A stretch of 64,000 nucleotides of DNA from Owenia fusiformis (GCA_903813345.2 CAIIXF020000001.1:22072001-22136000); one strand, 5' to 3'; counted from the first letter of the stretch, positions 15,401 through 48,504 are shown. Numbers and translations are program-made. Notes: generated by a model not told the origin, from the letters alone.

Positions 15401-15484
15401 GTGAACGGCTAGCACTCATAGCTTTTAAATGCATGTGTATAGCTTAACTATAGCCTAATGATGGACCGGCTTTTTCAGATCAAG

Positions 15485-25166: not shown

Positions 25167-27418
25167 CTACATCAGACAACAGTTGAAAATGGAAATCAAC
25201 GCAACTAAAGAGTGTAGCCATGGTGATAGCCCTAACCACGGACTTGAAGACGGATCACCCGGTACACTGCATGCTGAAACAAAATAAATAAAATAAATAA
25301 ACATTGTCGACATAGAAAACTGGAAGTTTTAAACAGTATCATTTTCCATTTTCATAATCGTTGAAAATGACAAGGCATGGGAGTAACTGACACTTTGTGA
25401 ATCAATACGACATTTTGGGACCTGAAAACCTTTAATTTGCCAATCTACCCTTAGTAAATTATAAGATTCCCATTTCGCCTCGGTTACAATCTTACTTCTA
25501 GTCTCAAGAGACTTTGCTATACATCTTAGGTTTTTGCAGATAAATAGATGGTAACGTGTTTTTCACATGTTATTCTCTCTTTTTATAAACAGGTCTAGCT
25601 AAAACCTTTTTCTTGCGTTAAACTCACGTGTGCCTTGAAAGTTTGATCTAAATTCATCAAGACCGGCGTGGCATATCTTCCTGTTAATGATGTCATATAC
25701 GCGTGTTTCATCAACAGATCTCAAGTTGTTGGTCCTACTCAAGACATGTACGATTGGATCGGGGAGACACGTCCCGTTTGCGTATAATATGTTCTCCCAC
25801 GTACATGTTACGATTAAGGCATAGTTGTAGAAGTCAGTTTCTACCACATAGAACTCTCGGTCCTCTAAAAATTTGCCAACAACAAGTAACTAGATCAGAA
25901 AGTCATAGGCAGCAACATTCGAAAAGAAATACGTACCCAGCATACAATTTATTTGAATGAAGAAAGTGCATGTAGCAACATTAGATAGACTAAGCTACAC
26001 GTTTTTTAGAGAATTTGTCCCGGAACCTCTAGGAATTATTACCATCGTAATATTTACTTACCCAATCGAGTATGAACAAATAAGGAAAAACATCTTGAAA
26101 AAATTGAGAATGAGACAATTATCCATTAGAGTCGCAAATCAGCTCTTGTAAATTTCGCCTAGACCGGTTATATAGTGCAGTTAATTTTTCGTCCAAATCA
26201 GAAGTAAATTTTGACGTTAAATTAAGATAAACTTGCCGCTCATCCCCGTCACCATGAAAACCACACACAGTTTTTACTTTTTTAATCGTTCATCTAAAAA
26301 AATTGGAATGGTGGTACTTGCGCAATTCTTTAAAATTCTGAGGACTTTTCAAGTTAATGTGAACACCCCTGGAATATTTCGAAAAGTGAACCCCCTTGGG
26401 AAAGCTTGCTAAGGGCCCGTAGACTTACCTGATTCGCCACTGGATGTATTTGTGGTTCTTATGGCAAGTCTAGCCGGATGGCTTCCGGTACTCGAAACCA
26501 ATTGCATCTTTAGCCCCGATTCAGGCCATGATTCACAATCAGAACTATATAAGAGAATATATAATACAATGATCAGAATGTGTTTACAGCCAAGACATCT
26601 TACACCCCTTGTCCTTTGAAAGTGAAAGTGAAATAAGTGAAACAATGTGCACACATAGTAAAAGACAAATCATGTAAAGCCATTCAAAGCCATTCATTAC
26701 ATGTTAAACTTTCTGTTGAGATCTGTTGCTCAGTTGAATGGAGAAAACAAACTCTTTTTTATTGTATTTATAGTAATTAATATTTAAACTGAAAAAATGG
26801 AATACTTGAAAACAAGTACAAATCGGAGCATTTTCAAAAATATGTTTAGTTTCCCGAAAATTGCCTAAATCTTAAAATCGGAGCATTTTCAAAAATATGT
26901 TTAGTTTTCCGAAAATTGCCTAAATCTTAAGACGTTAGATATATTGAACTTTGAATGACCTAATGCTTACCCACCTATTTTTCGGTGTACCTGTTTCCAA
27001 TACGTCAGCAACACCAGACGATCGCTTAGTGTATTGAATTGAAAAGTTATCCAACAACCAATCATCATCGATACCAATGTGAAACCACGCCTTCACTTCG
27101 AACCATCTACCCATGAACTAAGGAATGAATACTAGTATATAAGACATATTTTGGAAAATGTTGTGCCATCGTCCTTCTGGCCTTCGTCAAGATTTAGTAT
27201 TTTGTTTAGTTAGGTGTTCTCTTACGTTGAATGTAACCGATTGTGTACGTACGATTTTAAAAGACAGAGCTGGTGTTTCTTACACTTACCTCATCGAAAT
27301 TAAAGTTGCTTTGGAGATCTAAACTTGTCATATTTAAGACACATTTTTCTGCGGTGACAGTTGTTAATATTCCAAGGAATATTACATATAAAATATGCTG
27401 TATCTGATATTTCTGCAT
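25167..27418 (-). CDS. Lipocalin copy A (RBP4/purpurin-like, six Cys, signal peptide, GPI-signal-like C-tail)
   Basis: Exons 27418-27290 MQKYQIQHILYVIFLGILTTVTAEKCVLNMTSLDLQSNFNFDE; 27117-26975 FMGRWFEVKAWFH...; 26544-26429 SDCESWP...HPARLAIR...; 25864-25628 ...YVVETDFYNYALIVTC...NGTCLPDPIVHVLSR...ICH...; 25273-25167 CSVPGDPSSSPWLGLSPWLHSLVALISIFNCCLM*. Lipocalin SCR1 (GxW), SCR2 (TD[F/Y]xNYA) and SCR3 (LSR) are present; intron phases 0,2,1,1. Confidence 0.88.
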
Positions 27419-27567
27419 GTCAACTGTAATGTAGTTACAAATTTGTCAACTTACTTGAACTCGCTTTTCAAAGTACTACTACTGTAAATAAAAAAACTCA
27501 AGAAACGCCAAACACTGAAAAACAACTTCTCAAAAATCTATTTACTTAGCTGTCTGATTATAATATA

Positions 27568-27933: not shown

Positions 27934-28529
27934 TACCTTTTTTAATTGAACGAACAGTTAAAGCTCCCATATTCAATAGATTTTTAGACGAAGTAAAAAT
28001 GTTCTGAAAAATAACATTATAAAAATAACATTAAATGAAATTGAATCAATCGAATACTTTCTTTGCCATTGCGAGTTGTATGTTGAAGAAAGGTTAGCAC
28101 TAAACGAAATCTATAAATATAACGATACAATTAGTGTTAAAGATCGCATCAATCTGATCTTAAATTGTACAAACGACGATCTTGCATTGCAAGCTGTCGT
28201 AATAGTTCATTCAATGTATATCAAGAGACAAGCAACGCTCACAACTTCGCTCATTTCATAAACTTGAGCAAATGATTTATCTATTTTGGTAAAATATGCT
28301 TTAATTCTCTGTTATTTGGATCTGTATTGTGAGCGTATAAGCAGGATAATTTAATAGGTTTCTAAAGGTCAACCGGGTTAAATGCAAAATTTCATTTTAA
28401 AATAACAGTTTGTTGTATTGAAGATGTGTCTTCAATCATATGATATGTTTTCACTATCAATTAAAAGCTAGTTGACAATCACTTTGTTAATTTCTAAGAA
28501 TTTCAAATTTTGAAATATGGTCCATCTGA

Positions 28530-31500
28530 TCACATTGCTGTCCAAATATGGGACATAAAAGTAGAAACCAAAGCCATTGACAAGCACAACCAAGACGATA
28601 ACGTTGACGCATCGCCCACGGGCCCTCCACAGGCTGAAAATAAACATTGTCAGTTGTAAAGGTAGGATATATTAATATAAAAATGAATTTTGGAAGACAA
28701 GAGCGTTATTTTGCGCATCAATCATTTTAGTCGCCAAGGTATTTTTGAACTTACGCCGAGAGTGGAAGTTAGGTCTGAATTCCTGAAGATCCGCGTGGCA
28801 TATTGTTTTGTTAATGATATCATCCAGGTATCTTGCATGACCGGGTTGCAATACGGTCGTCCTACTCAGTACGTGTACGATTGGATCAAGAAGGCATGTC
28901 CCATTGGCGTATAACGTTCCTCCATGAGAACATCCTACAGTCAAGGCATAATTGTCGTAATCTGTCACTAATACATACATCGGTATGTTACCTACGAATA
29001 TATAATGAATTAGTCCTTTTTAAAAGAAATTTAGAATAATGTATTACTTGCAAAAACAGGCAAATAGTTCATTCTTTCCACTTATCATCACAACATCATT
29101 CCCTTTGAGTTAAGATTGCAATCAAACCATTTTGCTCGATTTAGATGAATTTATGCTATCTTACTTGGAAGGCTACTACACTTTACGATGGTGAACCATC
29201 AATACTTCCAAAAGTTATTTTATCATGATATTAGGGATATAAAGTCAGCACGTGTCTGCTTTCGCGGCAAAACTGATTTCAGTTTCAGAGCAGAAATTTT
29301 ACGTCGCGTGACATGACGTGCTTGGTTGTAATAATTTGCCGCGAAATACGATTTTGTAAATAAAAATGAAAGCGATATGATTGGGGATTCAAGTACATAA
29401 AACGAATTCTAAAATACTCAGAAATTTATTGAGGTTGTTTTTTAGTGTGGATTTTCTCCCATGCGGTAATCATACAGGTAACAAAATTCGAGGCAGGGCA
29501 CAGATCTATCTCGAAGCGCCTGCGAAGATTCCCTGAGACACCGACACCAGCCTGCACAACCTCCATTTGGTTAGCAGTCCTTACCAGCTAAAAGCCAACG
29601 CTCCTTTGGCATAATATAAACACTACATGTACAGTACCTATCGATATCGATAAAGTAAGATCAAAAGTGCTCTGACTATATTAAACGTAAATTAATGGGT
29701 CATTTTCTCACAAAATGTTGATCTAATAATTACACCTACACATGTACCCAGAGGAGCAAAAAAGAAAAACAATTTTGTGATGTTTTCTTTTGTCGTACCA
29801 AAGGCCATCAAAAAGAACGTCCTTGGCCATTTAAAGAGGAAGAACACTTTTCATGCACCCCTCTTTCAAATGAACGCCCTCTGGCCTATTGATTACGTCG
29901 GTACTAAATTGAAAAACATTCTTAGACTTACCAGCAGAATTATATCCCAAGGTGAGTCTAGCTGGATGAAGTTGACCACCTGCAAACAACTTACGCCCTT
30001 TCATATATATGTCGCAGTCATCGCTAAAAAGAAATATTTTGGTCAATCGATATCCGATTCGAGGGAATCAGGTAAAAAAAAAACTATTATACCATTTCTT
30101 CAAAAATTTTCATTTTGAATCTTTCAAAATTTCTCTCTCGTTCAACAGAGGATTTTCTCTTGACCATGGTATAAGCTCGTTATTCACCCGTCGGGATGAT
30201 ATTGTTAATATCCCTAGGATGATATCAATATTTCCCGACATGTGAGGGAGTGTGCTAAATTCTGTGGCTATGTGGGAATAGAACCCAGACCCTCTTCGAT
30301 ATTTTTAAAATTCTCGAGTATAAAGTATAAAGGTTATATGCTGCAGAATGTATCTCGATATTTTCGATAATTTCAAGTCTAAATATTTCTTAAATCGATA
30401 AGCCCCAACTCCGACCCTGCCTCAACCCTATATTAACCCTGAGCCCAAACCTTACCCCTCACTCTGAATTTTACATTATAAGCCCTAATACCCAACCTTA
30501 AAATCCCCAGCCATAACCATAACCCTAACCCCAATACCCTGCAAACCCTTACTTAAGCTTTTAACCCTAACCTTTACCCTAAATCCTTAGCCCTAACCCC
30601 TAACCCGACCCTATGCCCTTAACTCAAACGCTAACTTTAACCATAAGCCCCAACCCTAACGCTAACCCTATGCACTAAACCTAACCCCTAACCCTAACTT
30701 TAACCCCAACCCCTAATCCGAATTCTAACCTCCCCAAACCCTAGCTTTGACCATGAGCTCCAGCCCTAATCCCTAACCTTAAACCCCCAACCTTAATTTT
30801 AAATCCTCAGCCCTAACCATAACTTTAACCCCCCTAAGCACTAAACTCAACCCTCACCCCAGCTTAAGATAGCTCTATAACATTTTCCAAGCTACCCTAT
30901 ACCCAAAATCTTGAACCAACGGTACCCATTTTGCCAAGTTTGGATGATTTGAAAATAAACTGAACATTGTGACGGTAGATGTTATCAAAAATATCGAAAG
31001 AATCGAAAGAATCGAAACATATTTTTTCGATTAAACTAATGAAATCGAAAATTTCGAAACCTAAAATGTATTTTTTCGATTAAACAAATTAATCGAGAAT
31101 ATAGAAAAATCGAAATTGCCAAGATCCTGGATAAGTATGCATCCTGACCACAGCAATTTTGATTCGCAATATCCGAAAAATAAGAAGAAATGGGTGCACA
31201 ACAACTTAATTGGAGACTCAAATTGATACCAGGTACCTATTTTTGACTCTTCCTGTTTCAAATGCATCAGCTACACCAGGTGATTTCTTGGTGTACACCT
31301 TAAAGTAATCATTCCACGCATCATCATCATTGAATCCTTCGTTACGGTGGAACCACGCCTTCACTTCGAACCATTTACCCATAAACTAATAAAATCATAT
31401 AAGAGACAAAGATGTGAGCTTCAGCAGATGATTTCCACCATAGAGACAGATATATCGTATCATATATCATCATTATTCTATATGTTAAAATTATACAATG

Positions 31501-31705
31501 TTACGTACCTTAATATATCCTAATACACCCCGTATAATATATAGTCATGTTCATTCCCTTTTCGTGTTGTTTTACTTACCTTATCGAAATCAAAGTTGGC
31601 TTGGAGGTCTAAACTTGTCATATTTAAGACACATTTTTCTGCAGTGACAGTTGTTAAGAAGAAGAATATAACATATATCACTCGCTGCATCCTTGCTGCA
31701 TCCAT
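28530..31705 (-). CDS. Lipocalin copy B (RBP-like, GPI-signal-like tail)
   Basis: Exons 31705-31580, 31385-31237 (FMGKWFEVKAWFHRNEGFNDDDAWNDYFKVY...), 30023-29932 (DDCDIYMKGRKLFAGGQLHPARLTLGYNSA), 28991-28755 (...VTDYDNYALTVGCSHGGTLYANGTC...) and 28633-28530 (CGGPVGDASTLSSWLCLSMALVSTFMSHIWTAM*); open frame, GT-AG introns. Confidence 0.88.
30395..30862 (+). repeat. Degenerate (CCCTAA)n telomere-like tract inside an intronic element (copy B intron 2)
   Basis: AACCCTAACCCC, CCCTAACCTTTACCCTAAA etc., flanked by TCGA-rich arms; absent from the homologous intron of copy D. Confidence 0.8.
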
Positions 31706-31755
31706 GTCGTCAGAGTGATTACATACAACTGTTTACTTTCAGACCAAATATATAC

Positions 31756-33008
31756 AGGGTGGTCCAAAAAGTGGAACATTTTCTTTTGCAATATAAGATT
31801 TATACAAGCTGCATCCATTTGCGCCGACCACGTAGCCATTTTAGCGACAAGTTATGGTTTCAATTGCCATTTCTAATCAAGGAATTTCCCTACCCTAGGA
31901 GCAATAAATCTGGTCAAATATTAGCGACCCCCGGGTCCTTCCACCATTTGAAATCTATTTTTAAACATCAGATTTTCTTGTTAGTAGAATGATGCTCGTA
32001 AATGTTGAGGGATATATACACGTGCAGTACTTTGTTTATGTCAATATTTTAATTAGAGACACCATATATGGTCATACGATTCTTCGCGGAAACATACTAC
32101 AATTAATTTATAAATGAAATGTTTGCTTACTATTTACATATAACCAATAGAGAAACAGCTTTTTAAATGACGCAATAACCCGCGAAATTAAAAGAACATG
32201 GTTTTACTCTTGGTTTGTATCTGTTCAACAAAAGTGGAGAACATACTTGTATGAATGATCATTTTTTTGTCGAATGGGCGGGGGGATTGTTGCGTTTGGT
32301 GGGTACAAATCGGGAACAAATCCACATCATAGTAATTTTCGAAAGGTCTCTTGTAATTTATGCAATGACGTATTTTAAGATATTGGCTTTTTACTTTAAT
32401 AGGTTACCTCCCTCCGTTTTATTCAGCTATATCAAAGCGATATTAATCAAATTAAAATTCCTTCGAACGTAACTTTTTTCAAAAAATAATTTCAAATTAA
32501 ATTAATCACCTATATTAAATCAATTAAATTATGACGTGCTCATGAATATAAGTTGAACGCGGAAGTGAATTTTTCCGAAGGGAGGACGAAAACAAGCTTG
32601 ACAAACTAATAATTACTGCTCGATGTGCTCAGTATTCTAGAATTCCTCTCTCCAGCGGTTATTCTCGGCGATTCCACCCCTGAAACTTTTCCCGACATGT
32701 AGATGAGTTATTTTCTTCTGTTCCCGATATGAGCAATCATAAATAAGTTCACTGAATATACCGATCATTTGCAAATTCCGAGAATCCTAAGTGTATACTG
32801 GACGAAACAGATTCAGTCAAATAACCCCATTCCCGGGCACATGTAAATCAAATTCCCCACTCCCGGGACGACAATCTTCGTCAAATTCCTATCCCTGGGG
32901 GCAATATTGTGGATCAAATTCCTTACCCTACCCGCGTGGGGGGTCTCACGCAAACTTTTGAATGGTGCATAAATCGATGTTCTACTTTAATCTTTTGAAC
33001 CAGCCTGT
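31756..33008. mobile_element. Tc1/mariner-like MITE (CAGGGTGGTCCAAAA) whose interior is replaced by ~1.1 kb of unrelated sequence
   Basis: Same ends as the intact copy at 39520-39841; similarity breaks after TCTAATCAAGGAA (~31884) and resumes at ~32972. Confidence 0.65.
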
Positions 33009-33527
33009 ATATTTGTGTTTTGAAATCAAGTTACTGTTTATAAAACGCGAGTTATATTCATCCCGAAAAAACTTTATTGTCAAAACATCTACTAAATATT
33101 TAAAGTTCTATTGAAATACGAAATATACAGATTGTTTAACATAAAAGAATCCATGCAATCCTAATCAAAATAAGCAGCTCTTTATGTATCCATCGTTGAT
33201 TTATCTTTATTACTGACATGCTCCTCGGTACATTTTGGATCTCCATAGAACTATGAAAAAGTTAATATATTTTCCACAGTAGGAATGCTTATTCTTTCTT
33301 AATTCTGTGTCATTTGGATCTGTATTCTGAGCGTATAAGCAGGATAATTTAATAGGTTGCAAAAGGTCAACCGGGTTAAATGCAAAATGTCATCTTAACA
33401 TAACAGTTTGTTGTACTAAAGATGTGTCTTCAATCATATGGTAGCATGTTTTCACTAATTAAAAGCTAGTTGACAATAACAGTGTTAATTTCTAAGAATA
33501 TCAAATTTTGAAATATGGTCCATCTGA

Positions 33528-36500
33528 TCACACTGCTGTCCAAATATGGGACATAAAAGTAGAAACCAAAGCCATTGACAAGCACAACCAAGACGATAAC
33601 GTTGAAGCATCGCCCACGGGCCCTCCACAGGCTGAAAATAAACATTGTCAGTTGTAAAGGTAGGATATATTAATAGAAAAATGAATTTTGGAAGACAAGA
33701 GCGTTATTTTGCCGTATCAATCATTTTAGTCGCCAAGGTATTTTTTAACTTACGCCGAGAGTGAAAGTTAGGTCTGAATTCCTGAAGATCCGCGTGGCAT
33801 ATTGTTTTGTTAATGATATCATCCAGGTATCTTGCATGACTGGGTTGCAATATGGTCGTCCTACTCAGTACGTGTACGATTGGATCAGGAAGGCATGTCC
33901 CATTGTCGTATAACGTTCCTCCGTGAGAACATCCCACTGTCAAGGCATAATTGTCGTAATCGGTCGCTAATACATACGAGTACATCGGTATGTTACCTAC
34001 GAATATATAATGAACTAGTCCTTTTTAAAAGAAATTTAGAATAATGATGACTACTTGCAAAAAGAGGCAAATAGTTCATTCTTTCCACTTATCATCAGCC
34101 TGGCAACCTCCATTTGGTTGGCAGTCCTTACCAGCTAAATAAAAGTGGTCATTAGCAAGCCAATGCTCCTTTGGCATAATATTAGCACTACATGTACAGT
34201 ATCTATAGATATCGATAAAGTGAGATCAAAAGTGCTCTGACTATTGTATGTATGTATATTTATGTATATTTATTTATTTAAGTGCCTCGTATAGAATACC
34301 CAGCCTATTTTAGGCTTATGGGGCACATTGTACAATATATTTGAAAACAATATTATAATAAGATTATCTAAACGAAGCTTGCTCTTTTGATAAGAGCAGC
34401 ATTCAGGAATTTTCCAGTATGGCGCACTAATCTAAAGTCATGTAATAAAAGTTTCAAAAGTTCATCATCAATAATAAGTTCTTGTTTTTGTAAAATACGT
34501 TTAACAGACAAAAATAAGTCTTCTCGTAGATTTTTATATGATGGGCATACTAGTAAAAAGTGGAACTCGTCCTCAATAATGGATATATTATCGTTCTTAC
34601 AATGTAAGCAAAGTCTCTGGTCAACTGGGGTGGATCTATATCTTCCAGTCTCCAGCATTAATGGTAATGTGCCTGATCTTGCTTTTGCAAGCAATGATCT
34701 GAATGTCCTTGGTAAACAGATCTTGACATAGTCTTCTGTTTCAAATGTTGTTTTAAATGTCCTATAAGTCCTTAGTTTTGGCATATTGGCAATCTTAAGT
34801 TTCCATTCTTCGATGTATCGTTGCAGTTCCGCTGTTTTAATAGAATCGAGGATGAGTGAACTATCTCCAAAGTGTCTCGTTTCATATTCACGTTGTAAAT
34901 TAGCAGATATAAATATTTCCCTTACATCCTTGCACCAACATTTGTGTCCTAAGATAGGATTTTCATTATCAAAGTCGAAAATTCTTCTAGTCAGCCTATC
35001 TCTAGGCATTTTGCTTAGTCTAATAAAGAGTCTCACCATCTCCAATCGGTGTCTGATGTTAGGCGGTATCCATCCCATGTCACCGTAAATTGTAAACGTA
35101 AATTAATGGGTCATTTTCTCACAAAATGTTGATCTAATAATTACACCTACACATGTTGAGGGTACCCAGAGCAGCAAAAAAAGAATGAAAATATTGTGAT
35201 GTTTTCTTCTGTCGTACCAAAGGCCATCAAAAAGAACGTCCTTGGCCATTTAAAGAGGAAGAACACTTTTCATGCACCCCTCTTTCAAATGAACGCCCTC
35301 TGGCCTATTGATTTAGTCGGTACTAAGTTGAAAGACATTCTTAGACTTACCAGCAGAATTATATCCTAAGGTGAGTCTAGCTGGATGAAGTTGACCACCT
35401 GCAAACAACTTACGACCTTTCATATATATGTCGCAGTCATCGCTAAAAAGGAATATTTTGGTCAATCGATATCCGATTCGAGGGAATCAGGCAAAGAAAA
35501 ACTAATACAGGGTGTCAATTTTTTTTTATCATCTTTCATATTTATTGTAAGCACAAGTCATTTAGATACAATTACAAGGGGCAAAGCGCTGTAAGCATTA
35601 GATGTCCCCTTATATAAGTAAACAATAAAGTACAATATTCATCTTAACCTGGATGTCACCTGTAAATGGTAGAATGCCTTGCAATGAAACAAAAGATAGG
35701 AGGGCTGCTGATATCCTGGGGGGGGGGGTAGTATGTTGAAAAATGGTAACAGGTCATAGGCAGGAAAATATTTAGATTCTGGTTGTGTTTTCAATGAGAT
35801 AATTCGCAACCAGTGAAAATAGATTATCCATTTCTAATTGGGTTAATGATGGATCCCCAAAAAGAAAAAAGTGAATTTTGTCTTGTTGAGTTCTGAAATG
35901 AGTTAATAAGTCCCCATATATCCCTAAAGTGTCAGTTATTAATTTATTTCTTTGTTGTTCTTTCAGAGGGCATTTGAAAAAGAAGTGGGGAAAAGTTTCA
36001 GGGGAACCACATAAACAATTTGATGACTCAACTGAGCTCCAATTGTGGGCTTTGAGCTGAGCTTTTAAAACTAAATCTACCCTGGCTCTATTCAGATAAA
36101 GTTCTTGTTGACGAGTTAATTTTAAACAAATAGTTGAAACAACACCAGGGAACGAATTTAATTTAAGTGTTCTTTTAAAAGATGCAATAGTTGGCAAGAG
36201 CTTTTGTTCCAAGGGAACAGATCCTGGATCATTCCATAGGTTCATCATTTTGTATATTGGAGACTTATGTGGATAGTGAATAGGGATAGTGAAATCTCGA
36301 GATTTCCTTAACAATCTTGCTTGAGGGTTTATGAATGGCCTAAATATATCTGAGATATAAATAGGTGTTAAATCATTCACGGCTTTGTACATAATTGTTT
36401 TAAAGTGGAGGATCCTCCTCTCAGTTAAGGTGGACCAGTTCAAAAATGTTAAGTACTTTGGAAGTGCTGGAGCCTGGGAGAGCACCAGAGACTATTAGAC

Positions 36501-39470
36501 CAGCTTGGTACTGGAGACTGTCAAGTCTGTTAAGGTCACAAATAGGAGCACAGTCGCAAAGGATATCACAATAATCAAATCAGGACTGAATATAAGCTGT
36601 ATAGAGAATATTTAATTGTTTTGATTTTAGTCTACCCTTAAGTGCTTTTAAGGGGTTAAGAGCTGTTTGGATTTTTGCACAGATAGAATTTATATGTGCT
36701 GACCCACTTAATTTTTTATCAAAAATGAAGCCTAGGTGTTTATGAATGTCAGTTTTTTCAATTTGTTTATCATTTAAGATAACTGGTGGATAGATTGGAT
36801 TATTTTTCTTAGAAAAGGTCATTTCTCTGCTCTTTTCTGGTTTAAAATCTAGTTTCCACTGTTTAGACCAGGCTTCGATTTTTTTAGATCATTTTGAATT
36901 TGTATATGAGATTGCGGATTGTTTTGGGAAGTAGGTACAAAGAGGGAGGTGTCGTCTGCATAAATAAAACACTCTGAGGTCAGGTTGTCAGGTAAGTCGT
37001 TTATATAGAGGAGAAACATCAAAGGTCCGAGAATACTTCCCTGAGGCACAGAACAGTTTATGTAGTTGCTAGGAGAGGTGTCAGAACATTTGCCATTCAC
37101 AGTTACTTTGACACTCCTATCAGTCAAATAAGATTTTAGAAAAACTAATAAGTTTCCTGAAAATCCATACGCTTTCAACTTTTTTAGAAGAAGGTAATGG
37201 GGGACACGGTCAAAAGCGGCCGAAATATCCCAAAAAATTGCACGTGTATCATTGCCGTCGCTAAAATTGCGCCAAATTAGGTTTTTGATGGCTAACAGTT
37301 GTAACTCATTGCTGTGCCCTTTCAAAAAGCCGGACTGGTATTTATACAATAAGTTATTTTCAATTAAATGTTCGTACATCCTAGAGTAGACAATTCGTTC
37401 TAATATTTTGGAAGTAATACTGAGAAGAGATATAGGTCTATACTTTCTTATGTCATTCTTATTATTCTTTTTTAATATTTTGGGGAGATATCCCCTAATT
37501 TCCAGTTCTGGGGAAAATTACCTGTGGTCAAAATTTTATGAAAAAGTAAATTAAGTGGCACAGAAATAGTATTCCTGCATAGCTGGAGCATTTTTATTGT
37601 AACTCGAATAAGTCCCGTCCCCCTGCTACAGCTAAAACCTTAACAGAAGGTACCTAGTGTGATATACCATTGGAACGATCATCCAAAGTTATGTTAACTC
37701 ACCAACTCTCAAGTATTTTGGATGAAATTCACCTATATTTTTATGATGTCTTTTAAAATTAACGTGCCCTCCTTTAAGTAGCTTTTTTGCGTCAAAATGA
37801 CAAGGATATGACCTCAGAAAAACATCAAAAAGTTAATCTTTTTCAAAAATGTTCAATTCTTTCAAAAATTTTCATTTTGAATGTTTCAACATTTTTCTCT
37901 CATTCAACAGAGGATTTTCTCTTTACCATGGTTATTGGTATCAGGTCGTTATTCACCCGTCGGGATGATATTGTTAATATCCCTCGGATGATATCAATAT
38001 TTCCCGACACATGAGGGAGTGTGCTAAATTCTGTGGCTATGTGGGAATCGAACCCAGACCCTCTTCGATATTTTCGAAATTCTCGAGTATAGTATAAAGC
38101 TAGGTTATATGCTGCAGATTGTATCTCGATATTTTCGATAATTTCGAGTCTAAATATTACTTAAATCGATAAGCCCTAACTCCGACCCTGCCTCAACCCT
38201 AATTTTTACCCTTAGCCCAAACCTAACCCCTCACTCTGAATTTTACATTATAAGCCCTAATACCCAACCTTAAATCCCCAGCCATAACCATAACCCTAAC
38301 CCCCACACCCAAACCCTTACTTAAACTTTTAAACCTAACCTTTACCCTAAATCCTTAGCCCTAACCCCTAACCTGAACCCTATATGCCCTAAACTCAAAC
38401 CCTAACTTTAACCATAAGCCCCAACCCTAACGCTAACCCTATGCACTAAACCTAATCCCTAACCCTAATTTTAACCCCAACCCCTAATCTGAATTCTAAG
38501 CTCCCCAAACCCTAACTTTAACCATAAGCTCGAGCCCTAATCCCTTACCTTAAGCCCCCAACCTTAATTCTAAATCCTCAGCCCTAACCATAACTTAACC
38601 CCCCTAACCACTAAACTTAACCCCTCACCCCAGCTTTAGATAGCTCTATAACATTTTCCAAGCTACCCTATACCCAAAATCTTGAACGGTACCCATTTTG
38701 CCAAGTTTGGATGATTTGAAAATAAACTGAACATTGTGACGGTAGATGTTATCGAAAATATCGAAAAAATCGAAAGAATCGAAACATATTTTTTCGATTA
38801 AACTAATGAAATCGAAAATTTCGAAACCTAAAATGTATTTTTTCGCTTAAACAAATTTCATCGATTATATCGAAAAATCGAAATTGCCAAGATCCTGGAT
38901 AAGTATGCATCCTGACCACAGCAATTTTGATTCGCAATATCCGAAAAATAAGAAGAAATGGGTGCACAACAACTTAATTGGAGACTCAAATTGATACCAG
39001 GTACCTATTTTTGACTCTTCCTGTTTCAAATGCATCAGCTACACCAGGTGATTTCTTGGTGTACACCTTAAAGTAATCATTCCACGCATCATCATCATTG
39101 AATCCTTCGTTACGGTGGAACCACGCCTTCACTTCGAACCATTTACCCATAAACTAATAAAATCATATAAGAGACAAAGATGTGAGCTTCAGCAGATGAT
39201 TTCCACCATAGAGACAGATATATCGTATCATATATCATCATTATTCTATATGTTAAAATTATACAATGTTACGTACCTTAATATATCCTAATACACCCCG
39301 TATAATATATAGTCATGTTCATTCCCTTTTCGTGTTGTTTTACTTACCTTATCGAAATCAAAGTTGGCTTGGAGGTCTAAACTTGTCATATTTAAGACAC
39401 ATTTTTCTGCAGTGACAGTTGTTAAGAGGAATATAACATATATCACTCGCTGCATCCTTGCTGCATCCAT
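33528..39470 (-). CDS. Lipocalin copy C (near-identical to B; two LINE insertions in introns)
   Basis: Exons 39470-39348, 39153-39005, 35442-35351, 33996-33754 and 33631-33528 (CGGPVGDASTLSSWLCLSMALVSTFMSHIWTAV*); frame open, splice sites intact. Confidence 0.86.
34249..35088 (-). mobile_element. 5'-truncated non-LTR retrotransposon (3' end of ORF2, CCHC-type C-terminus; RTE-X/L2-like)
   Basis: ORF 34368-35078 with LRTYRTFK...LMLETGRY...RLCLHC...IEDEFHFLLVCPSY; (TACA/TAAA)n 3' tail; ATTGTA TSD at 34243-48 and 35089-94; empty site in copy B (~29675). Confidence 0.9.
35519..37606 (-). mobile_element. 5'-truncated, frameshifted LINE (CR1/L2-like reverse transcriptase) with poly(A) tail
   Basis: ORFs 36849-37379 (YQSGF, DISAAFDRVPH, VPQGSILGPLMFLLYINDLP, YADDT), 36580-36822 (HKHLGFIFD) and 35772-36485 (CLCGSPETFPHFFFKCP); T-run at 35519-27 is the poly(A); absent from copy B. 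Confidence 0.92.
37990..38063 (-). mobile_element. Possible tRNA-derived SINE fragment (B-box); paralogous copy at ~30222-30294
   Basis: The minus strand reads GAGGGTCTGGGTTCGATTCCC, a Pol III B-box-like GGTTCGATTCC. No A-box or cloverleaf is visible. Confidence 0.35.
38165..38633 (+). repeat. Degenerate (CCCTAA)n telomere-like tract (copy C intron 2), paralogue of 30395-30862
   Basis: Colinear with the copy B tract, with scattered substitutions. Confidence 0.8.
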
Positions 39471-39519
39471 GTCGTCAGAGTGATTACATACAACTGTTTA
39501 CTTTCAGACCAAATATATA

Positions 39520-39841: not shown

Positions 39842-40358
39842 TATATTTGTGATTTGAAATCAAGTTACTGTTTATAAAACGCGAGTTATATTCATCCCGA
39901 AAAAACTTTATTGTCAAAACATCTACTAAATATTTAAAGTTCTATTGAAATACGAAATATACAGATCGTTTAACATAAAAGAATCCATGCAATCCTAATC
40001 AAAATAAGCAGCTCTTTATGTATCCATCGTTGATTTATCTTTATTACTGACATGCTCCTCGGTACATTTTGGATCTCCATAGAACTATGAAAAAGTTAAT
40101 ATATTTTCCACAGTAGGAATGTTTATTCTTTCTTAATTCTCTATCATTTGGATCTGTATTCTGAGCGTAAGCAGGATAATCTAATAGGTTGCTAAAGGTC
40201 AACCGGGTTAAATGCAAAATTTCATTTTAACATAACAGTTTGTTGTACTAAAGATGTGTCTTCAATCATATGGTAGCAAATTTCACTAATTAAAAACTAG
40301 TTGACAATAACAGTGTTAATTTCTAAGAATATCAAATTTTGAAATATGGTCCATCTGA

Positions 40359-43300
40359 TCACACTACTGTCCAAATATGGGACATAAAAGTAGAAACCAA
40401 AGCCATTGACAAGCACAACCAAGACGATAACGTTGACGCATCGCCCACGGGCCCTTCACATGCTGAAAATAAACATTGTCAATTGTAAAGGTAGGATATA
40501 TCAATAGAAAAATGAATTTTGGTAGACAAGAGCGTTATTTTGCCGTATCAATCATTTTAGTCGCCAAGGTATTTTTTAACTTACGCCGAGAGTGGAAGTT
40601 AGGTCTGAATTCCTGAAGATCCGCGTGGCATATTGTTTTGTTAATGATATCATCCAGGTATCTTGCATGACCGGGTTGCAATATTGTCGTCCTACTTAGT
40701 ACGTGTACGATTGGATCAGGAAGGCATGTCCCACTGGCGTATAACTTTCCTTCATGAGAACAACCCACAGTCAAGGCATAATTGTCGTAATCGGTCGCTA
40801 CCACATACATCGCCATAGTATCTACGTGTATATGTATTGAATTGGTTATTTTGAAAAGAATCACAATCGCAAGAAGTAGCTTCTAATATTAGCTTATAAC
40901 GTATAAGAAATAGTAAAACTACTAGTCCCTGAGCTGCTCCAAAATTGAGGTGTCGTTGTCTAGTACTCCGCCACAAAAATGAACATACCGTTTAAAAATT
41001 ACTGACTTCCCTTATTAAGAAAATATATTCGTTTTAATTGTAACGGGGGCTTTTGCTTCTAGAATAGGGTCACACAAGGTTGCCTTCTAAAAACTTTATA
41101 ACTGTATATGTTTTTTTAAAAGTTTTTTACCACATAACTGCATTTTAAGTATAATATTAATTTTGATAAAAAGTAAGTACTTTTGATTTACAAGAGAACA
41201 AATTTGGAAAATGATCCACTTCCGTACGGTGACGACTGACGATTACCCCCCTATCACACCAAACTAGTTCTTACTCGTTCTTGTTTCTTGCCAGTCCTAC
41301 GAAAACGTAGTAAAACGGGCTTAATCTGGCTGTGGTCGGGAAATATATCTAAAATAATTATAGCTACTTCGTTCATAAACAGTCTTCAATACGTGGACAT
41401 CTCATTCGCAGTTCGTTCAGGTCGCACCACGTCGGTGTGCAACGTCGTATAACGCGTCCCTTAGTCTAGAAGGTCATCATGACCTGAGTACAGAACGGTA
41501 TGGTCGCCATCGAATTTTGAATCGATTCAAAATTCTAAATCACATTCCCCGTCCGGGAAAGTCCTGAAGTTCGTAAACAGACCGTAGAACGTCCATTCAG
41601 TTCGCACACAGTTTAAAACCAGTTTTGAAGAGCGCAGTGGCAACTTGCTTGGTGTGATAGCTATATTTTTGCTAACTCGTTGATAAATACGTTCTTAATC
41701 AGTTTTAACCCGTTTGCAATTAGTTCTACCTCGTTCTCAATACATCCTAAGACATTTCAACTCGTTGTAAAAACGTCCCTACTAGGATTGAAGTTGTAGG
41801 TTGTCACTCGTTCTTATTGAAGAACGTGACGACCAAGAGAACATTGTGAGCATGTTCTAAGTTCTAGAGGACCTACCCGTTCGAGTACGTTCGATGAAGT
41901 TTGTAAATAGACCACAAATGGTTCTAAGTACGTCCAGTCCGTTCGTACACAGTTGAAGCCCGTAATTATTTTAGACATATTTCCCGACCACAGCCAGATT
42001 GAGCCCGTTTTACGACGTTTTCGTGGGACTGGCAACAACGGGTAAGAACTAGTTTGGTGTGATAGGGGGGTTAGTGCTCTCTTTCGACCAGGTACTTTAA
42101 TTCCAACTCTGTGTGCGACATCAATATCTGAACTAGAAATGTTTGATTCAATCTGCTGGGCAACTTCAAGAATTAATGATTTACAATCTTCATTTTCCGT
42201 CTCCTCAATTCCAGTTATCATAATGTTACTTTTCCGTGAATATTGTTCATTCCTATTTGAAACTGCCCTCGAAAGAACGCCTTCATAAAGAGGAAAAATA
42301 CTTTTCCATACACCCCTCTTTCAAATAAACGCCCATGAGAGCCTATTTGCGAAAAATTACATGTACGGTACTACGTTGAAAACATTCTTAGACTTACAAG
42401 TAGAATTATCATCTCCCAATGTGAGTCTAGCTGGATGAAGACGTCCACCTGCAAACAATATGCGTCCTCTCTGGTTTCTGTTGCAGTTATCGCTAAAACA
42501 AAAAAATGTTTTGGTAAATCGGAACGCGGTAAGAATAATCTTAAAACTGGTGGCACATAATTAAAGCTCCGATTCAAAGGAATACGTTGAGAAATACTAT
42601 TAAACAAAATTATTCATTTCTTAAGAAAATGGAAGAAACATTGTAAAATGTCAGAAATCCCGAATAACATAGAAATAATCTTTTTAATTTTTAAAGGTCA
42701 TAGAAGATCAATCGAAAGTCGAATCTCCATTCTGACCACATATGAAAAATTCTGATTTACGATTTCAGAAAAATAAGAAGAATAGGGGGCAAAACAATAA
42801 CTGGAGACTTATAAAGCGATAACTGATACATGATACCTATTTTTGACTCTTCCTGTTTCAAATACATCAGCTACACCATCTGATTTCTTGGTGTACACCT
42901 TAGAGAAATCATTCCAAGCATCATAATCAGAGAATCCTTCTATACGGTGGAACCACGCCTTCACTTCGAACCATTTACCCATAAACTAATAAAATCATAT
43001 AAGAGATAATCAAAAATGTCAACTTCAGATAATGTCCACCTTAGGGAAAGTGTCGTATCACATATTATCATCATTCTTTAACCCCCCTATCACACCAAAC
43101 TAGTTCTCAACCGTTCTTACAAAAATGTCGTAAGACGGGCTAAATCTGGCTGTGATCGGGGAAAAAACTAGCTATTTCGTTTATAAACAGTCTTCAATAC
43201 GTCCATTTCATTTTCAGGTCGCATTATGTTGGTGTTCACACGTAACCCTACTATCACACCAAACTAGTTCTCACTACTGAAATGGACAGAATGGACAGAA

Positions 43301-44500
43301 TGTTAGTACAAATGCACTCACCTTCGGTTCGTGCTTTGTACAACATTCTGTCCAACTCGTGCAGAATTTCACCATATTGAATGGCCTATCATTATTTATT
43401 CCTTAATTAGACAACGTCGTTAACGCGTCACTAGTCGGGTCGAAGTACGGCAACTACGTTCCTACGTTATCACACGATCTAATCACAAAACGGTATGATA
43501 GTAGGCTGATCTCACTTCATTCTCGAACGTAACCCTACTACCACACCAAACTATTTAACTACGTCCTCGAAAACGGGTCTAAATTGTGTACGAACGGATT
43601 GGACTTACTTAGAACCGTTTGGGGTCTATTTACAAACTTTATGAACTAACTCGAACGAGTAGGTCGCCCAGAACTTAGAGCATTCTCAAAATTTTCTGGT
43701 GGTCACCACTTTCTCTCAATCTGTTTCTGCAATCAGAACGAGTGACGACGTTCTTAATACGAGCTGGACGTACTACGAACGGAACTGTCGTACTTAAATC
43801 GTACTAGGGACGTTTTCAGAACGAGATGAACTGTCTAAGGACGTATTGAGAACGAGGTAGAACTAATTTCAAACGGGTTAAACTGATTCAGGACGTATTA
43901 CAGACTGCTTATGAACGAGTTTGCAAAAATATATATATCATACCAAACTAGTTGACAATGCGTTCCTCAAAACGTTGTCGAACTGGTGTTATTTTCAAAC
44001 TGTGTGCGAACGGAACGAACGTAGCTGTAATGTTCTACTGTCTGTTTACGAACTTTATGAACGTGCTCGGACGGAAAGGAAATTTTGAATCATTTCAAAA
44101 TTTGATGCCGACTATACCGTTCTGTGATTTGATCGTGTAACAACGTATACTTCAAACGGATGACCTACTAGACTAGGAACGTGATTGCCGATTTGCCGTA
44201 CTTCCATCTTTCTAGAGAGACGTGTAAACGACGTTGTGCACGAACTGCGAATGAGATGGACGAATTGAAGACTGTTTATGAACGAAGTATATGATGTTGA
44301 CGGTTGCGTTCCTGAATACATTCCTTGGCCCGTTACAATACAGTTATACTCTTTTCCTTTGATGTTTTACTTACCTTATCGAAATCAAAGTTGGCTTGGA
44401 GGTCTAAACTTGTCATATTTAAGACACATTTTTCTGCAGTGACAGTTGATAAGAAGAAGAATATAATATATTTCAATTGCTGCATCCTTATTACATCCAT
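40359..44500 (-). CDS. Lipocalin copy D (RBP-like, GPI-signal-like tail)
   Basis: Exons 44500-44375 (MDVIRMQQLKYIIFFFLSTVTAEKC...), 42985-42837, 42492-42398 (DNCNRNQRGRILFAGGRLHPARLTLGDDNST), 40821-40585 and 40462-40359 (CEGPVGDASTLSSWLCLSMALVSTFMSHIWTVV*). Confidence 0.88.
41246..42070. mobile_element. PIF/Harbinger-like non-autonomous element (TTA TSD, ~110-bp TIRs)
   Basis: TTA|CCCCCCTATCACACCAAACTAGTTCTTAC ... GTAAGAACTAGTTTGGTGTGATAGGGGGG|TTA. Confidence 0.85.
42074..42266 (-). mobile_element. LINE ORF1 remnant (RRM/Tnp22-like), interrupted by the PIF-like element
   Basis: NEQYSRKSNIMITGIEETENEDC...SSSDIDVAHRVG...KRAL, continuing as IV past the TSD; typical of CR1/L2-type ORF1 proteins. 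Confidence 0.7.
43082..44295. mobile_element. Rearranged and nested copies of the CCCTATCACACCAAACTAGTT PIF-like family in lipocalin D intron 1
   Basis: Terminal motif at 43082, 43246, 43533 and ~43938; internal sequence similar to 41246-42070. Confidence 0.7.
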
Positions 44501-45982
44501 GCTGTCAAATCTAGAGTGATTACATACAACTGTTGACTTGCAGACTGAACTTGTACTACCTGTATGAGCTCTCCCACCAAGTCCACTGTTGATGGAGCTA
44601 TTTTATCCTTCAGAAAAAACTGTATCAAATATATATCGTGACTCGTTGTATGTGATATTGGGATGAACATAATTTAAGTGTGCTTTTATTCAAAATATGT
44701 CAACTTACTTGAATTCGCTTTTCAAAGTAAGTCTACTGTAAATGTATAAACTTTAACGTGAATATACAGGGTGTCAAATGGCGTTGTGCCCCCCCCATCC
44801 AAAGCATAATAATTTGTCAAAACCAATACTTACATTCCTAGTTTTAATATGCCGGTAGAGTATTAAATTCGCCATCCAGTATATTAAATTACTTGGATTA
44901 ATTTTTAGCTATACAATAAAACGGGAAATGTACCCAGTTTGCATCCCCTTGAATGCATGCTCGGATATGGTAGAGATGTAGTAAACAAATCAGATATTTT
45001 TTTTATCGTTTTAGCCTTGATTTTAAACTTCATACTTACATAGTTGTAAGAATGTATTAATACAAAGCTAAAATGTCCATATACCCAATGGCGGACATAA
45101 GGTAGCCTCTTCCTACATCCTTTCACATAATCCGGGCAATTTAGATAACAAACCGATATAACTGGGCATTATCTTTTTTAATTTTATTATTTTTCCAAAC
45201 ACCTAAGTCTCATTGTTTATCCATAACATGAACACTCATATTACTCGTTTGCAGGTATATCGGAAGTACTAGCAATGGAAATACAATCCAACTTGACATA
45301 AATTGCGTCCGGAAATAAACAACAAAAAACAAGTTACAATGCGATATCGAGAATATGCACAATGAATTGTTACAACACCCGGATATTGCAATTTGACACG
45401 GTAATTTAATCAATGTAGTATTTAAATTATTTTCATATAAAGTCTCAATTATATCTAGTTCCTTAGTAAATAGAATGTGTTAAGCATGTGTTGGAGGATA
45501 CAAATCATATGGACATAATAAAGCGTCTTGTTTTTTTTTTGTTTTTTTTATCAACTACTAGTAATATGAATGTGGAGGCATGAGTAACGAACTTCTCGGT
45601 AATATCAAATGCTGATTGAACAACAAGTTTAAATTTAAAATATTGTAATCGTTATTTTTGCACATTTATAGGAGGAACTAGGGATAATACAATACAATAT
45701 TGCAGTAAATACAATAAGCTTACAATATTTTAAATCCTGTTCTTCTCCTATTTTGATGGAGGAACTGAATCCAACCGATTTCGCTCATTTTTACACTTTG
45801 CTGTAGTCGCTCTAAATCTATAAAGACTAGTAAATATTGATTTAAAAAAGGTATATGACTAATATAGTGTATGTAATGTGAGTATTCTAAATTCAGAGAA
45901 ATCCCGACATCATGTTGTCCAGCAAACTTTGCGACTTGAGATAAATCCTTAAAAAGATTGGTCAATCAAAACATCAGTCCGA

Positions 45983-48504
45983 TCACAACATCATCCTTAA
46001 GAGACTGGACACTGAAAACAACGCTATGAACGGACACAGCCGAAGTGAGATCGTTGAAGCACCATTTCCAGGTAATTCACATTCTGAAAAAAAAAAGTAA
46101 TTGGTTTAAGTAATACAAATCTAACAACTAACAGGTGATGACAATAACATTATTGCTACTGAGATTCTTGACAACAAAATTTTTCTTTGAGACTAGTTAC
46201 ACCGTACAAGGCTCTGTGACTCCCCTTCTACTTGACTAAACACCTCACACTTGTTGTAGTGGCGAGGGGGTCACAGGGGCTTGTAGCTAGACTATCTTTC
46301 TTTGAATTTACTATGTATTAACTGTTATTGGGCCCGGAGTACTTATCCTACCCCGAGAATACGTACATACGTACATGACCTTATATCATAAACTCATTTT
46401 CATGAACATAGTTTATGCATTGTGATACAACTTACGTTTGCCGTGGATGTTTGGTCTGTATTCATCGAGGCCAGTATGACATATCTTAGTGTTTATGATG
46501 TCATCTACACGTGCTTCATCAGCAGGATTTAATGCCGTTTTCCTACTTAGAACGTACACATTCGGATCAGGAAGACACGTCCCATTGGCATACAGTGTTG
46601 CTCTATTCATACATTCTACGGTCAATGCGTAGTTGTCATAATCAGTTGCTACCACATACAACGGTTTGTCCACTAAAATGAATTGAAATCGTTTAATATA
46701 ATAGTTTTGTAAAATACAATTAAATCGTTTTTCCATATCCCTTTTTATTAGAAATAAAAATATCAATTTCATGCAACCACATGCTAAAACTACGTTTTGA
46801 AGCACGCAGTGGCAACTAGTTTGGTGTGATACATTTACATGTAGCTATAGTTTTGCTAACTCGCTCATAAGCAGTCTTTGATATGTCCTTGATCAGTTTG
46901 CAATTAGTTCCACCTTATTCTTAATACGTTCTCAGACAGTTCAACTCGTTCGAAAAACGTCCCTAGTAGGACTGAAGTACGAGGTTCAGTCCGTCCAGTT
47001 CGTCTTAAGTACGTTGTCACTAGTTCTGAATGCAGAACCTGGCGACCACTAGACAATTTTGAGCATGTTTTAAGTTCTGGAGGACCTTTCTGTTCGAATA
47101 CCTTCATGAAATTTGTAAAAATACCCCAAACGGTTCTTAGTACTTCCAATCCGTTCGTACACAGTTTAAGCCGGCCCGTTTTCAAGAATGTAATAAGAAC
47201 TAGTTTGGTGTAGGGTAATAGAGGATCTTCCTTTTTAGGAATAAAACCATTTTTACCTTTCCTAAATCTGTAGATTAGGTAATTTGGTCGAAAATGTGAA
47301 AAAATGAAATATCAGTTAAAAAGGAGGGGAGACAAAACACAATCTAGGACCTAAAATATTGAATACATAATTTTTTTTTGCAAAATAAACCTCCTAGAAC
47401 ATACCCCTAGCTACCTAAACATTTTGTGAAAAGAGGAAGACTTCTGACTATGCATAGACCCTTTAATTTGTGATTAGGAAGGTTCCTCTACAGAAGAAAA
47501 CTGTAGAAAGATCTCGAGAAATCTCGCAAGGTTTAACTACAGTAGTTTCAAAACCTAGGGAAAAATCGACGAGAAAGGAATTTTAATTTTGAGATTTAGC
47601 TACAATGCGCGAGTGCTTGCTGAGGGACTGCTGTGTCAAGATACGTGTAATTACAAAACGTACTAAACTTACCAATGGTTCCTCGAGACGTTTTCAATTT
47701 CAACGTGAGTCTAGCTGGGTAAAGTCTTCCACCTAAAACTAACTTGTGCCCAGTCCATTGTGTGCATTCAGTGCTTAAACAGAAAATGCATGTGTCTAGT
47801 ATCATATGATGTCTCCTCAAGGATTTGATAAATTGATTGATTGATTGATTAATTTACATTTTACCCCGATTTTACCCAATTGAGGGTAGAATATGAGAAA
47901 GTGCCGGGTTAAGTGTTAAGACCTTCACCAAGACCCTCTTCCCGGATATCCCATTTAAATTTTGGAGGTTATACGATCGATATAAAAAAATACATGAACG
48001 AAATATTCAGTGCTCATGACCTACCTATTTTTAGGTCGCCCTATAGTTAATACATCAGCCATGCCAGTTGACTTCTCACTGTATTGTCTATAGTAATCAT
48101 TCCACAAAGTATCCACAGATACGCCACTGTGAAACCAGGCCTTCACTTCAAACCACGTGCCCATGAACTATGGAATAGAATGGAATAGGTCATAAAATAC
48201 ATTGTTGTTGTTTTCCATTTCGGTCAGATCATGGCTGACCACCAACTGCCTTTAATTTACTCCATACTTCCCATATCGTCTTGAAATACTTTTATTATCC
48301 AAATAATTGACCATAAAGGGATTTTGAATCCATTTTTCCAAATGTATTAATTTGCTTCAAAATTTATTTTTTGTTTCTTTTACTTACCTTAGAGAAATCA
48401 AAGTTGCCTTGAAGTTCTAAAGTGTCCATATTCAAGACACATTTTTGCGCATTGGCAGTTGTTAATATCCCAATGAATGTAACAAAAATCTTTACGTCCT
48501 TCAT
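45983..48504 (-). CDS. Lipocalin copy E (divergent RBP-like, GPI-signal-like tail)
   Basis: Exons 48504-48388 MKDVKIFVTFIGILTTANAQKCVLNMDTLELQGNFDFSK; 48167-48025 FMGTWFEVKAWFHSG...; 47773-47673 TECTQWTGHKLVLGGRLYPARLTL...; 46672-46436 ...VATDYDNYALTVECMNRATLYANGTC...ICH...; 46083-45983 CELPGNGASTISLRLCPFIALFSVSSLLRMML*. Confidence 0.88.
46790..47215. mobile_element. Fragment of the same PIF-like family in lipocalin E intron 3
   Basis: GTTTTGAAG..CGCAGTGGCAACT.GTTTGGTGTGATA ... AAGAACTAGTTTGGTGTAGGG, matching 41620-42066. Confidence 0.7.

Follow-up and report, generated by a model that had tools for sequence, protein, structure and literature searches.

The question raised by this locus is to which lipocalin lineage a tandem run of genes in the annelid Owenia fusiformis belongs, that of RBP4 (retinol-binding protein 4) and purpurin or that of apolipoprotein D (ApoD) and Lazarillo, and whether the encoded proteins are held at the cell surface. 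The genes occupy positions 25167-48504 of a 64,000-nucleotide stretch of Owenia DNA, referred to here as the window. The array is probably a tandem expansion, specific to its lineage, within a lipocalin family of Lophotrochozoa, and its members would be three-disulfide proteins, tethered by glycosylphosphatidylinositol (GPI) and binding small hydrophobic ligands at the cell surface. The structures and intactness of the genes, their motifs, the modelled fold, the aligned cysteine columns and the layout of the tail are shown below; how the disulfides connect, that a GPI anchor is added, that the proteins reach the surface and that they bind a ligand are inferred, as follows. Each would enter the endoplasmic reticulum via a cleaved signal peptide, fold into an eight-strand lipocalin barrel with a C-terminal helix and form three disulfides in the RBP4 arrangement (first-fifth, second-sixth and third-fourth cysteine), with N-glycosylation probable. 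The C-terminal hydrophobic peptide would then be swapped for a GPI anchor at a small residue some 5-9 positions past the sixth cysteine, and the barrel, exposed on the outside of the plasma membrane, would bind, present or capture a small hydrophobic ligand.

Gene structure and fold of the five copies

The window has a guanine-plus-cytosine content of 33-43% and its open reading frames (ORFs) are fragmented, as in eukaryotic DNA. Five intact lipocalin genes lie in it, all on the minus strand, bounded by the stop codon of gene A (25167) and the ATG of gene E (48504). The count of five given in the original prediction held, as a tblastn search of the whole window with four family proteins returned no further copies. 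Every gene has an open frame (232-243 codons) split over five coding exons of 117-129, 143-149, 92-116, 237-243 and 101-107 bases (exons 1-5), and all 20 introns are GT-AG, with phases 0,2,1,1. The annotated models of A and E served as guides, and B, C and D were built from the sequence by homology. The genes are as follows:

25167..27418, minus strand: gene A, 243 amino acids; exons 27418-27290, 27117-26975, 26544-26429, 25864-25628, 25273-25167; equal to database protein P0002 letter for letter
28530..31705, minus strand: gene B, 235 amino acids; exons 31705-31580, 31385-31237, 30023-29932, 28991-28755, 28633-28530; homology model
33528..39470, minus strand: gene C, 236 amino acids; exons 39470-39348, 39153-39005, 35442-35351, 33996-33754, 33631-33528; homology model
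40359..44500, minus strand: gene D, 236 amino acids; exons 44500-44375, 42985-42837, 42492-42398, 40821-40585, 40462-40359; homology model
45983..48504, minus strand: gene E, 232 amino acids; exons 48504-48388, 48167-48025, 47773-47673, 46672-46436, 46083-45983; equal to database protein P0001 letter for letter

The Owenia fusiformis database proteins P0001 (232 amino acids, 'unnamed protein product') and P0002 (243 amino acids) map onto the locus exon by exon, which marks the window as annelid DNA. A suggestion that automated annotation could miss the array thus applies to only part of it: A and E are modelled fully, while D is modelled partly and wrongly (P0004, with another first exon and without exon 5) and B and C were not seen as separate database entries, though the P0004 cluster counts three member sequences, which may include them. 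Identity is 97.0% between B and C, 83.8% between D and B and 84.2% between D and C; A, E and the trio of B, C and D share 51-56% with each other. A further Owenia paralogue, P0003, lies on another chromosome and is 73% identical to A.

The lipocalin motifs and signal peptide described for the locus are present in all five genes. The GxW region reads FMG(R/K/T)WFEVKAW, with W44 invariant in an alignment of 27 rows, and TD(Y/F)xNYAL and VLSR follow in each copy, with T130, D131 and R164 nearly invariant in the family alignment. By inspection, each protein begins with a putative signal peptide of 19-23 hydrophobic residues ending V-x-A or A-x-A (as V-T-A or A-N-A), directly ahead of E/Q-K-C, and each carries 2-5 N-glycosylation sequons.

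An AlphaFold2 model of P0001 based on the 27-row alignment (mean predicted local distance difference test score, pLDDT, 84.2; predicted template modelling score, pTM, 0.77) consists of an eight-strand barrel, with strands within residues 42-163, and a helix at 170-183; towards the end, residues 208-214 form a linker with pLDDT <50 and residues 218-231 a second helix. Aligned with VIA-align, residues 20-204 of the model match 50 solved lipocalin entries at Z 17.5-20.1. The match to the Pfam Lipocalin model that had been proposed as a check did not come out positive: P0001 stays below threshold, with 14.5 bits against the Lipocalin cut-off of 23 and 18.5 bits against the Triabin cut-off of 21, P0002 and P0003 match no Pfam family at E 0.001, and single exons gave only sub-threshold matches. 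That none of the three full-length proteins scanned from the Owenia array clade reaches the Pfam lipocalin threshold counts against the assignment; among the relatives, 16 of 27 match PF00061 at E 0.001 or better. Judged by predicted fold and motifs, the Owenia clade is lipocalin, too divergent for the Pfam model, and the modelled fold, which indicates lipocalin membership, cannot pick the subfamily.

The cysteine pattern and its relatives

Six cysteines are invariant in the five genes and P0003 (residues 22, 90, 141, 153, 185 and 201 in E), the last of them encoded in exon 5. The loop between the third and fourth, C-x(11)-C, had been described as ending NGTC throughout, which is the case in four genes, D having SGTC instead. 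When a family profile of 27 single-domain relatives was searched against the PDB, the top match was RBP4 (118 bits, E 3.5e-33), with ApoD and sandercyanin at 83-85 bits, and in the printed alignment all six cysteine columns of the profile fall on RBP4 cysteines. A profile of Owenia proteins only gave the same order: it matched RBP4 with 30.1 bits, over positions 25-202, and ApoD with 25.7, over positions 30-145. Of the 30 family rows in a joint alignment, 24 retain all six cysteines, and six ApoD-type rows (shark, amphipod and insects) have the first, third and sixth only. The second cysteine of ApoD is expected between the positions of the first and second cysteines of the window proteins, and these have no cysteine between residues 22 and 90.

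The pairing of the cysteines in RBP4 is first-fifth, second-sixth and third-fourth, and in ApoD, in the same numbering, the first pairs with the third. Two proteins of the nemertean Lineus lack the first and fifth cysteines jointly and keep the other four, a loss that fits RBP4-type pairing and not ApoD-type pairing; in the tree the two may share a single ancestral loss, and they are counted as one event. Profile search, cysteine alignment and the Lineus losses together support the proposal, made from the window sequence alone, that the genes carry the RBP4-type six-cysteine pattern and not the four-cysteine pattern of ApoD and Lazarillo. Diez-Hermano et al. single out the additional disulfide as something that sets RBP4 apart and that ApoM has as well (PMC8420045).

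Several results run counter to this assignment, and they are what an alternative would draw on in which the genes are lipocalins of the ApoD/Lazarillo lineage that gained three extra cysteines independently of vertebrates, so that the likeness to RBP4 is convergent and the function a Lazarillo-like, GPI-linked handling of lipids. Searched alone against the PDB, P0001 scores ApoD (E 7.6e-5) marginally above RBP4 (1.6e-4), although its RBP4 alignment spans residues 28-202 with five cysteines on RBP4 cysteines. Foldseek places ApoD first, and in VIA-align ApoD and sandercyanin (Z 19.4-20.1, root-mean-square deviation 2.4-2.8) and RBP4 (Z 18.6-19.0, root-mean-square deviation 2.9-3.5) tie, the best values being 20.1 for ApoD and 19.0 for RBP4. 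In a protein atlas the nearest feature cluster is an arthropod 'Apolipoprotein D' cluster (0.96), and the first structural row is apolipoprotein D-like, with RBP4 in row 5. The NCBI name of the Lingula relatives is apolipoprotein D, the branch between six-cysteine and four-cysteine proteins in the tree described below has support of only 81/56 and is also the chosen root, and in a scheme from the literature RBP4 arose in early chordates from an ancestor resembling ApoD (PMC8420045).

Against convergence, it is all six cysteine columns that coincide with RBP4 and not just the cysteine number, and the family profile favours RBP4 by about 35 bits over a full-length match. Structure-based identity is 21-26% to RBP4 and 21-22% to ApoD, the interval in which the second ApoD cysteine would lie is empty, and the same six-cysteine domain occurs in a hemichordate protein. 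Independent gain within the ApoD/Lazarillo lineage is a possibility to which we give tentative credence, and a lophotrochozoan family with an RBP4-type cysteine arrangement is the reading retained here.

Comparison with the two known systems gives likenesses on both sides. With RBP4 and purpurin the window proteins share the lipocalin fold, the six cysteine columns, a third-fourth cysteine loop ending GTC and the motif TDYDxYA, and in the PDB the family profile and the Owenia-only profile alike match RBP4 best by sequence. They differ in that identity to RBP4 is low and that RBP4 is soluble and stops a few residues past its sixth cysteine, whereas the Owenia proteins add a linker and a hydrophobic tail. 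With Lazarillo and ApoD they share a single lipocalin domain with a signal peptide, and ApoD leads the structural matches so narrowly that the result is a tie. ApoD is described as having four conserved cysteines in two disulfides, a cysteine early in the barrel being paired to a C-terminal one, and in chordates a consensus of four coding exons (PMC8530192). The window genes depart from this in having six cysteines, with the ApoD-specific position empty, and a coding sequence split over five exons. For amphioxus, PMC3184775 reports no orthologue of Rbp4, whose origin it regards as unclear, and gives phases 0,2,1,1,1 for a single Ptgds/ApoM/Rbp4-like gene, a pattern from which Rbp4 departs.

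An HMMER scan of 1.84 billion representatives returned 61 hits at E 0.001 or better. Matches with names come from Lingula ('apolipoprotein D'), Patella, Nucella and Lottia, Haliotis and Liolophura ('purpurin-like'), Potamilus, Tubulanus, Crassostrea/Magallana ('retinol-binding protein 4-like', 'purpurin') and Lineus ('retinol-binding protein 4-B-like'), together with a second Owenia protein, P0018. The E-values of P0001 to its mollusc, nemertean and brachiopod relatives range from 1e-16 to 1e-3. The family is therefore neither special to the Owenia locus nor unseen, as had been supposed, since its relatives already bear the NCBI names RBP4-like, purpurin-like and apolipoprotein D. Among 11 proteins from a word-index search with the profile there was no RBP4. 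For molluscs, an oyster gene bearing the name rbp4b is described as a marker of a mantle secretory epithelial cell type (bioRxiv 10.64898/2026.03.09.710468), and the closest Tritia relative of RBP4 is treated as 'ApoD-like' in a preprint that adopts the derivation from an ApoD ancestor (10.64898/2025.12.01.691671).

A maximum-likelihood tree of 36 rows, which holds no vertebrate RBP4 row and was rooted on the branch between six-cysteine and four-cysteine proteins, places the five window genes and P0003 in one clade (98/99), with a nemertean clade as sister (96/94). Molluscs, brachiopods and P0018 group together (92/90). P0018 is a second six-cysteine tailed lipocalin of Owenia, encoded on another chromosome and 25% identical to P0001, and since it groups with the mollusc and brachiopod proteins and not with the array, at least two subfamilies would be old. 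The mollusc, nemertean and brachiopod proteins thus belong to the same family as the window genes and largely share their six cysteines, while the Owenia array forms a separate, species-specific clade, 20-28% identical to the other relatives.

The domain is also found in longer proteins. Among 19 multi-domain proteins (2-19 domains), all near-complete domains but one have the first/third/sixth-cysteine pattern. Nine others, including proteins of Saccoglossus, Potamilus and Haliotis, have domains of the six-cysteine type, a few of which miss one cysteine. One of these, P0010 of the hemichordate Saccoglossus kowalevskii (1041 amino acids), combines six-cysteine lipocalin domains with LDL-receptor class A modules. 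In P0012, P0045 and P0051, also of this group, six-cysteine lipocalin domains are combined with thyroglobulin type-1 repeats, and P0045 also carries an antistasin module.

The C-terminal tail and the reach of the tailed family

Beyond the sixth cysteine, each of the five proteins continues for 31-34 residues, arranged as a linker containing proline or glycine, a cluster of small residues (GDAS, NGAS or SSS), a short spacer and a hydrophobic end. The hydrophobic end is 13-19 residues long (mean Kyte-Doolittle 1.5-2.5), includes serine, threonine and histidine, and is followed by 0-4 residues, with no charged cytoplasmic stretch and no basic stop-transfer residues. The small-residue spacers (GGPVGDAS, PGNGAS) and the hydrophobic end lacking a cytoplasmic domain are accordingly present as the original prediction gave them. 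A further such cluster is GDPSSS, and all lie in exon 5:

25167..25273, minus strand: exon 5 of gene A; SSS cluster and 13-residue hydrophobic end, with no residue after it; candidate omega sites SSS and GLS; maximum 19-residue Kyte-Doolittle mean 1.59
28530..28633, minus strand: exon 5 of gene B; GGPVGDAS; candidate omega sites GDA, DAS and AST, with spacers of 4-6
33528..33631, minus strand: exon 5 of gene C; as in B
40359..40462, minus strand: exon 5 of gene D; as in B and C; candidate omega sites GDA, DAS and AST
45983..46083, minus strand: exon 5 of gene E; LPGNGAS; candidate omega sites GNG, NGA, GAS and AST

Candidate omega sites were found in all five genes, with spacers of 4-11 residues, by a home-made rule that is unvalidated against transmembrane anchors. 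In B-E the small-residue cluster stands 4-7 residues upstream of the hydrophobic end, and the distance from the sixth cysteine to the hydrophobic stretch is 13 residues, compared with 12 residues in 12 of 16 tails of polycalin-like proteins. These giants are among the strongest database matches of P0001 and are presumably polycalins, the named ones being simply 'uncharacterized protein' of Battus philenor and Diaphorina citri. A GPI-anchoring site has been predicted for lepidopteran polycalin, a midgut protein of many lipocalin domains (PMC5220377), and Lazarillo of the grasshopper is described as a GPI-linked cell-surface lipocalin (PMC10746777). Window genes and polycalin-like proteins share the order of last cysteine, about 12-13 residues with a small-residue cluster and hydrophobic end; they differ in that the latter have 2-19 domains with ApoD-type cysteines, whereas the former are single-domain and six-cysteine. 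A four-cysteine tailed relative, P0061, has a PGNGAA-type linker resembling that of gene E. The layout shared with the polycalin-like giants supports a tail built like a GPI-attachment signal.

The hydrophobic end could instead be kept as a membrane-spanning anchor, or be a propeptide that is retained or degraded, so that the proteins would be single-pass membrane or plainly secreted lipocalins. Residues 218-231 are modelled as a helix, and the maximum 19-residue Kyte-Doolittle mean of 1.41-1.69, lower than the 1.81-2.46 of the polycalin-like tails, speaks against a GPI signal and is near the usual threshold for transmembrane segments. Predicted isoforms point the same way. In Patella caerulea the short form (P0073, compared with P0040/P0074) diverges one residue before the sixth cysteine, at the position of the last intron in the Owenia genes, and is without that cysteine and the tail; in Liolophura sinensis (P0030 and P0072) the short form lacks the sixth cysteine and retains the tail. 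Given these, soluble or alternative forms may exist. On the other side, a stretch of only 13-19 residues with serine, threonine and histidine that reaches the very end and lacks basic stop-transfer residues is ill suited to a spanning anchor, the small-residue cluster of B-E stands close upstream, and the layout is common to the polycalin-like tails and P0061. A non-GPI fate of the tail is accordingly unlikely, and a GPI-type signal is the reading we keep.

A tail is present in 15 of the 25 single-domain relatives outside the window, and the other 10 end just after the last cysteine; oyster, Potamilus and one Lineus member are without it. For two tailed relatives the source contigs, 910 and 1081 bases long, scarcely exceed the reading frame, which suggests that in these two the tail belongs to the mature message.

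That GPI-linked lipocalins exist is already known from Lazarillo and polycalin, and RBP4-like names on relatives of the array are likewise not new. No description of six-cysteine or GPI-tailed lipocalins of annelids or molluscs was found in the literature searched, and as far as that literature extends, what is new is that a barrel of RBP4 type and a tail of GPI type occur together, spread over Lophotrochozoa and into a hemichordate. Such proteins would be a tethered, cell-surface equivalent of a protein that is otherwise known solely as a carrier in plasma.

A wider proposal, possible though doubtful, is that the three-disulfide RBP4-type lipocalin predates the protostome-deuterostome split and survives in annelids, nemerteans, molluscs and brachiopods, where it is largely GPI-tethered, and in the form of mosaic proteins in hemichordates, with the soluble RBP4 and purpurin of vertebrates descended from it or sister to it. 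Owenia is an early-branching annelid, and if the proposal is true, its array would be the first case in which the RBP4 lineage is recognised in annelids, and its genes would be candidate extracellular handlers of retinoids or carotenoids in animals with retinoic acid signalling. Because the six-cysteine domain is spread across Lophotrochozoa and a hemichordate, an origin of the RBP4 type before the chordates is live and testable. Its presence in four lophotrochozoan phyla and a hemichordate puts the chordate-origin scheme, as set out in PMC8420045, to the test. In the same way, PMC5821490 reports no rbp4 in the annelid Platynereis and RBP4 as absent from annelids, and five intact Owenia genes with the RBP4 cysteine pattern put that absence to the test.

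Divergence, transcription and surroundings of the copies

Between the old pairs of genes the ratio of nonsynonymous to synonymous divergence (dN/dS) is 0.24-0.30, a rough figure, as dS is >1 and saturated; it indicates a gene family under long-term purifying constraint. Within the young trio the ratio is 0.23 for B-C, 0.76 for B-D and 0.63 for C-D, so that B, C and D would be either relaxed or diversifying. The two higher values weigh against functional constraint on all five copies, as the young ones may have relaxed constraint. The differences between B/C and D are unevenly placed: in the predicted open-end loops 11 of 36 positions differ, elsewhere in the mature domain 19 of 146 (Fisher p = 0.02), and a further 6 of 10 differences lie in barrel strand D. 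Divergence among the five copies, above all within the young trio, is greatest in strand D and the predicted open-end loops, which suggests, on the modelled fold, surface binders with differing ligand preferences.

The divergence of the trio is also mosaic along the gene. Exon 3 of B and C is 75-76% identical to that of D, and the remaining exons are 92-96% identical; in exon 5, B and C are 98.1% identical and D is 96.2% identical to each. Intron 4 of D is 95.0-97.5% identical to that of B and C, equal to exon 5, and intron 4, exon 5 and, for C-D, 300 bases downstream all lie at 95-98%. The pattern suggests gene conversion or a staggered duplication at the 3' end. Conservation of exon 5 in B, C and D was considered as a signal of selection on the tail and rejected: because intron 4 is equally alike, the likeness of exon 5 in the trio is uninformative on selection. 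That this exon is no better conserved than the neighbouring intron tells against the main reading in so far as the likeness may come from recent duplication or gene conversion and not from selection.

Reads of three Owenia-labelled RNA-seq runs, each sampled at about 6-12%, and of a contig run, X1, were placed on positions 28505-48504. RNA depth is about 0-2 over the exon-bearing bins of the three runs, including those of annotated gene E. Among the joints listed (15 of 47) none falls at a lipocalin intron, the reads being too sparse to bear on expression or on use of exon 5. Run X1 spans introns and intergenic DNA contiguously and thus behaves as DNA.

These results bear on a last alternative, that B, C and D are young duplicates, intact by chance, unexpressed and ridden with retroelements, with only A and E working. 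Their dN/dS ratios involving D, retroelement ORFs in the introns of C, highly repeated sequence in the introns of D, RNA depth of about 0 over the exon-bearing bins of all three genes in the three runs and the database record (B and C not seen as separate proteins, D as a partial model only) would all be expected of such debris. Yet open frames, all splice sites, six cysteines and all motifs are kept in the trio, B-C stands at 0.23, and the differences between B/C and D are enriched in predicted open-end loops, not evenly spread. The RNA runs, moreover, sample unspecified tissue and are equally near zero over gene E. That the trio is mere debris we consider improbable, and an array of five working genes is the reading followed here.

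Insertions account for much of the difference in size between copies: gene C measures 5.9 kb and gene B 3.2 kb because of retroelement insertions in introns 2 and 3 of C. The ORFs in these introns are:

36849-37517, minus strand: retroelement ORF, RVT_1 (E 8.6e-29), in intron 2 of gene C
35772-36491, minus strand: retroelement ORF with a weak zf-RVT match, in the region of introns 2-3 of gene C
34368-35102, minus strand: ORF of 244 amino acids with no Pfam family, in the region of introns 2-3 of gene C

Three stretches stand out from the otherwise low RNA depth, namely 37176-37842, 41178-42511 and 43179-43845, of which the latter two lie in introns of gene D. Each has an RNA depth of 11-31 per strand, and word depth in the X1 contigs reaches about 117,000. 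Many opposite-strand and go-back joints occur near 41963 and 43277. The stretches resemble copies of a transcribed element that is highly repeated and contains inverted parts.

Outside the array, the longer ORFs of the window are:

60951-62057, minus strand: ORF of 368 residues, no Pfam family at E 0.01
852-1478, minus strand: ORF of 208 residues, no Pfam family at E 0.01
11623-12183, minus strand: ORF of 186 residues, no Pfam family at E 0.01
15443-16975, plus strand: ORF of 510 residues, Major Facilitator Superfamily (MFS_1, E 6.9e-13)

The last of these is likely a transporter gene in the neighbourhood of the array, or one large exon of such a gene.

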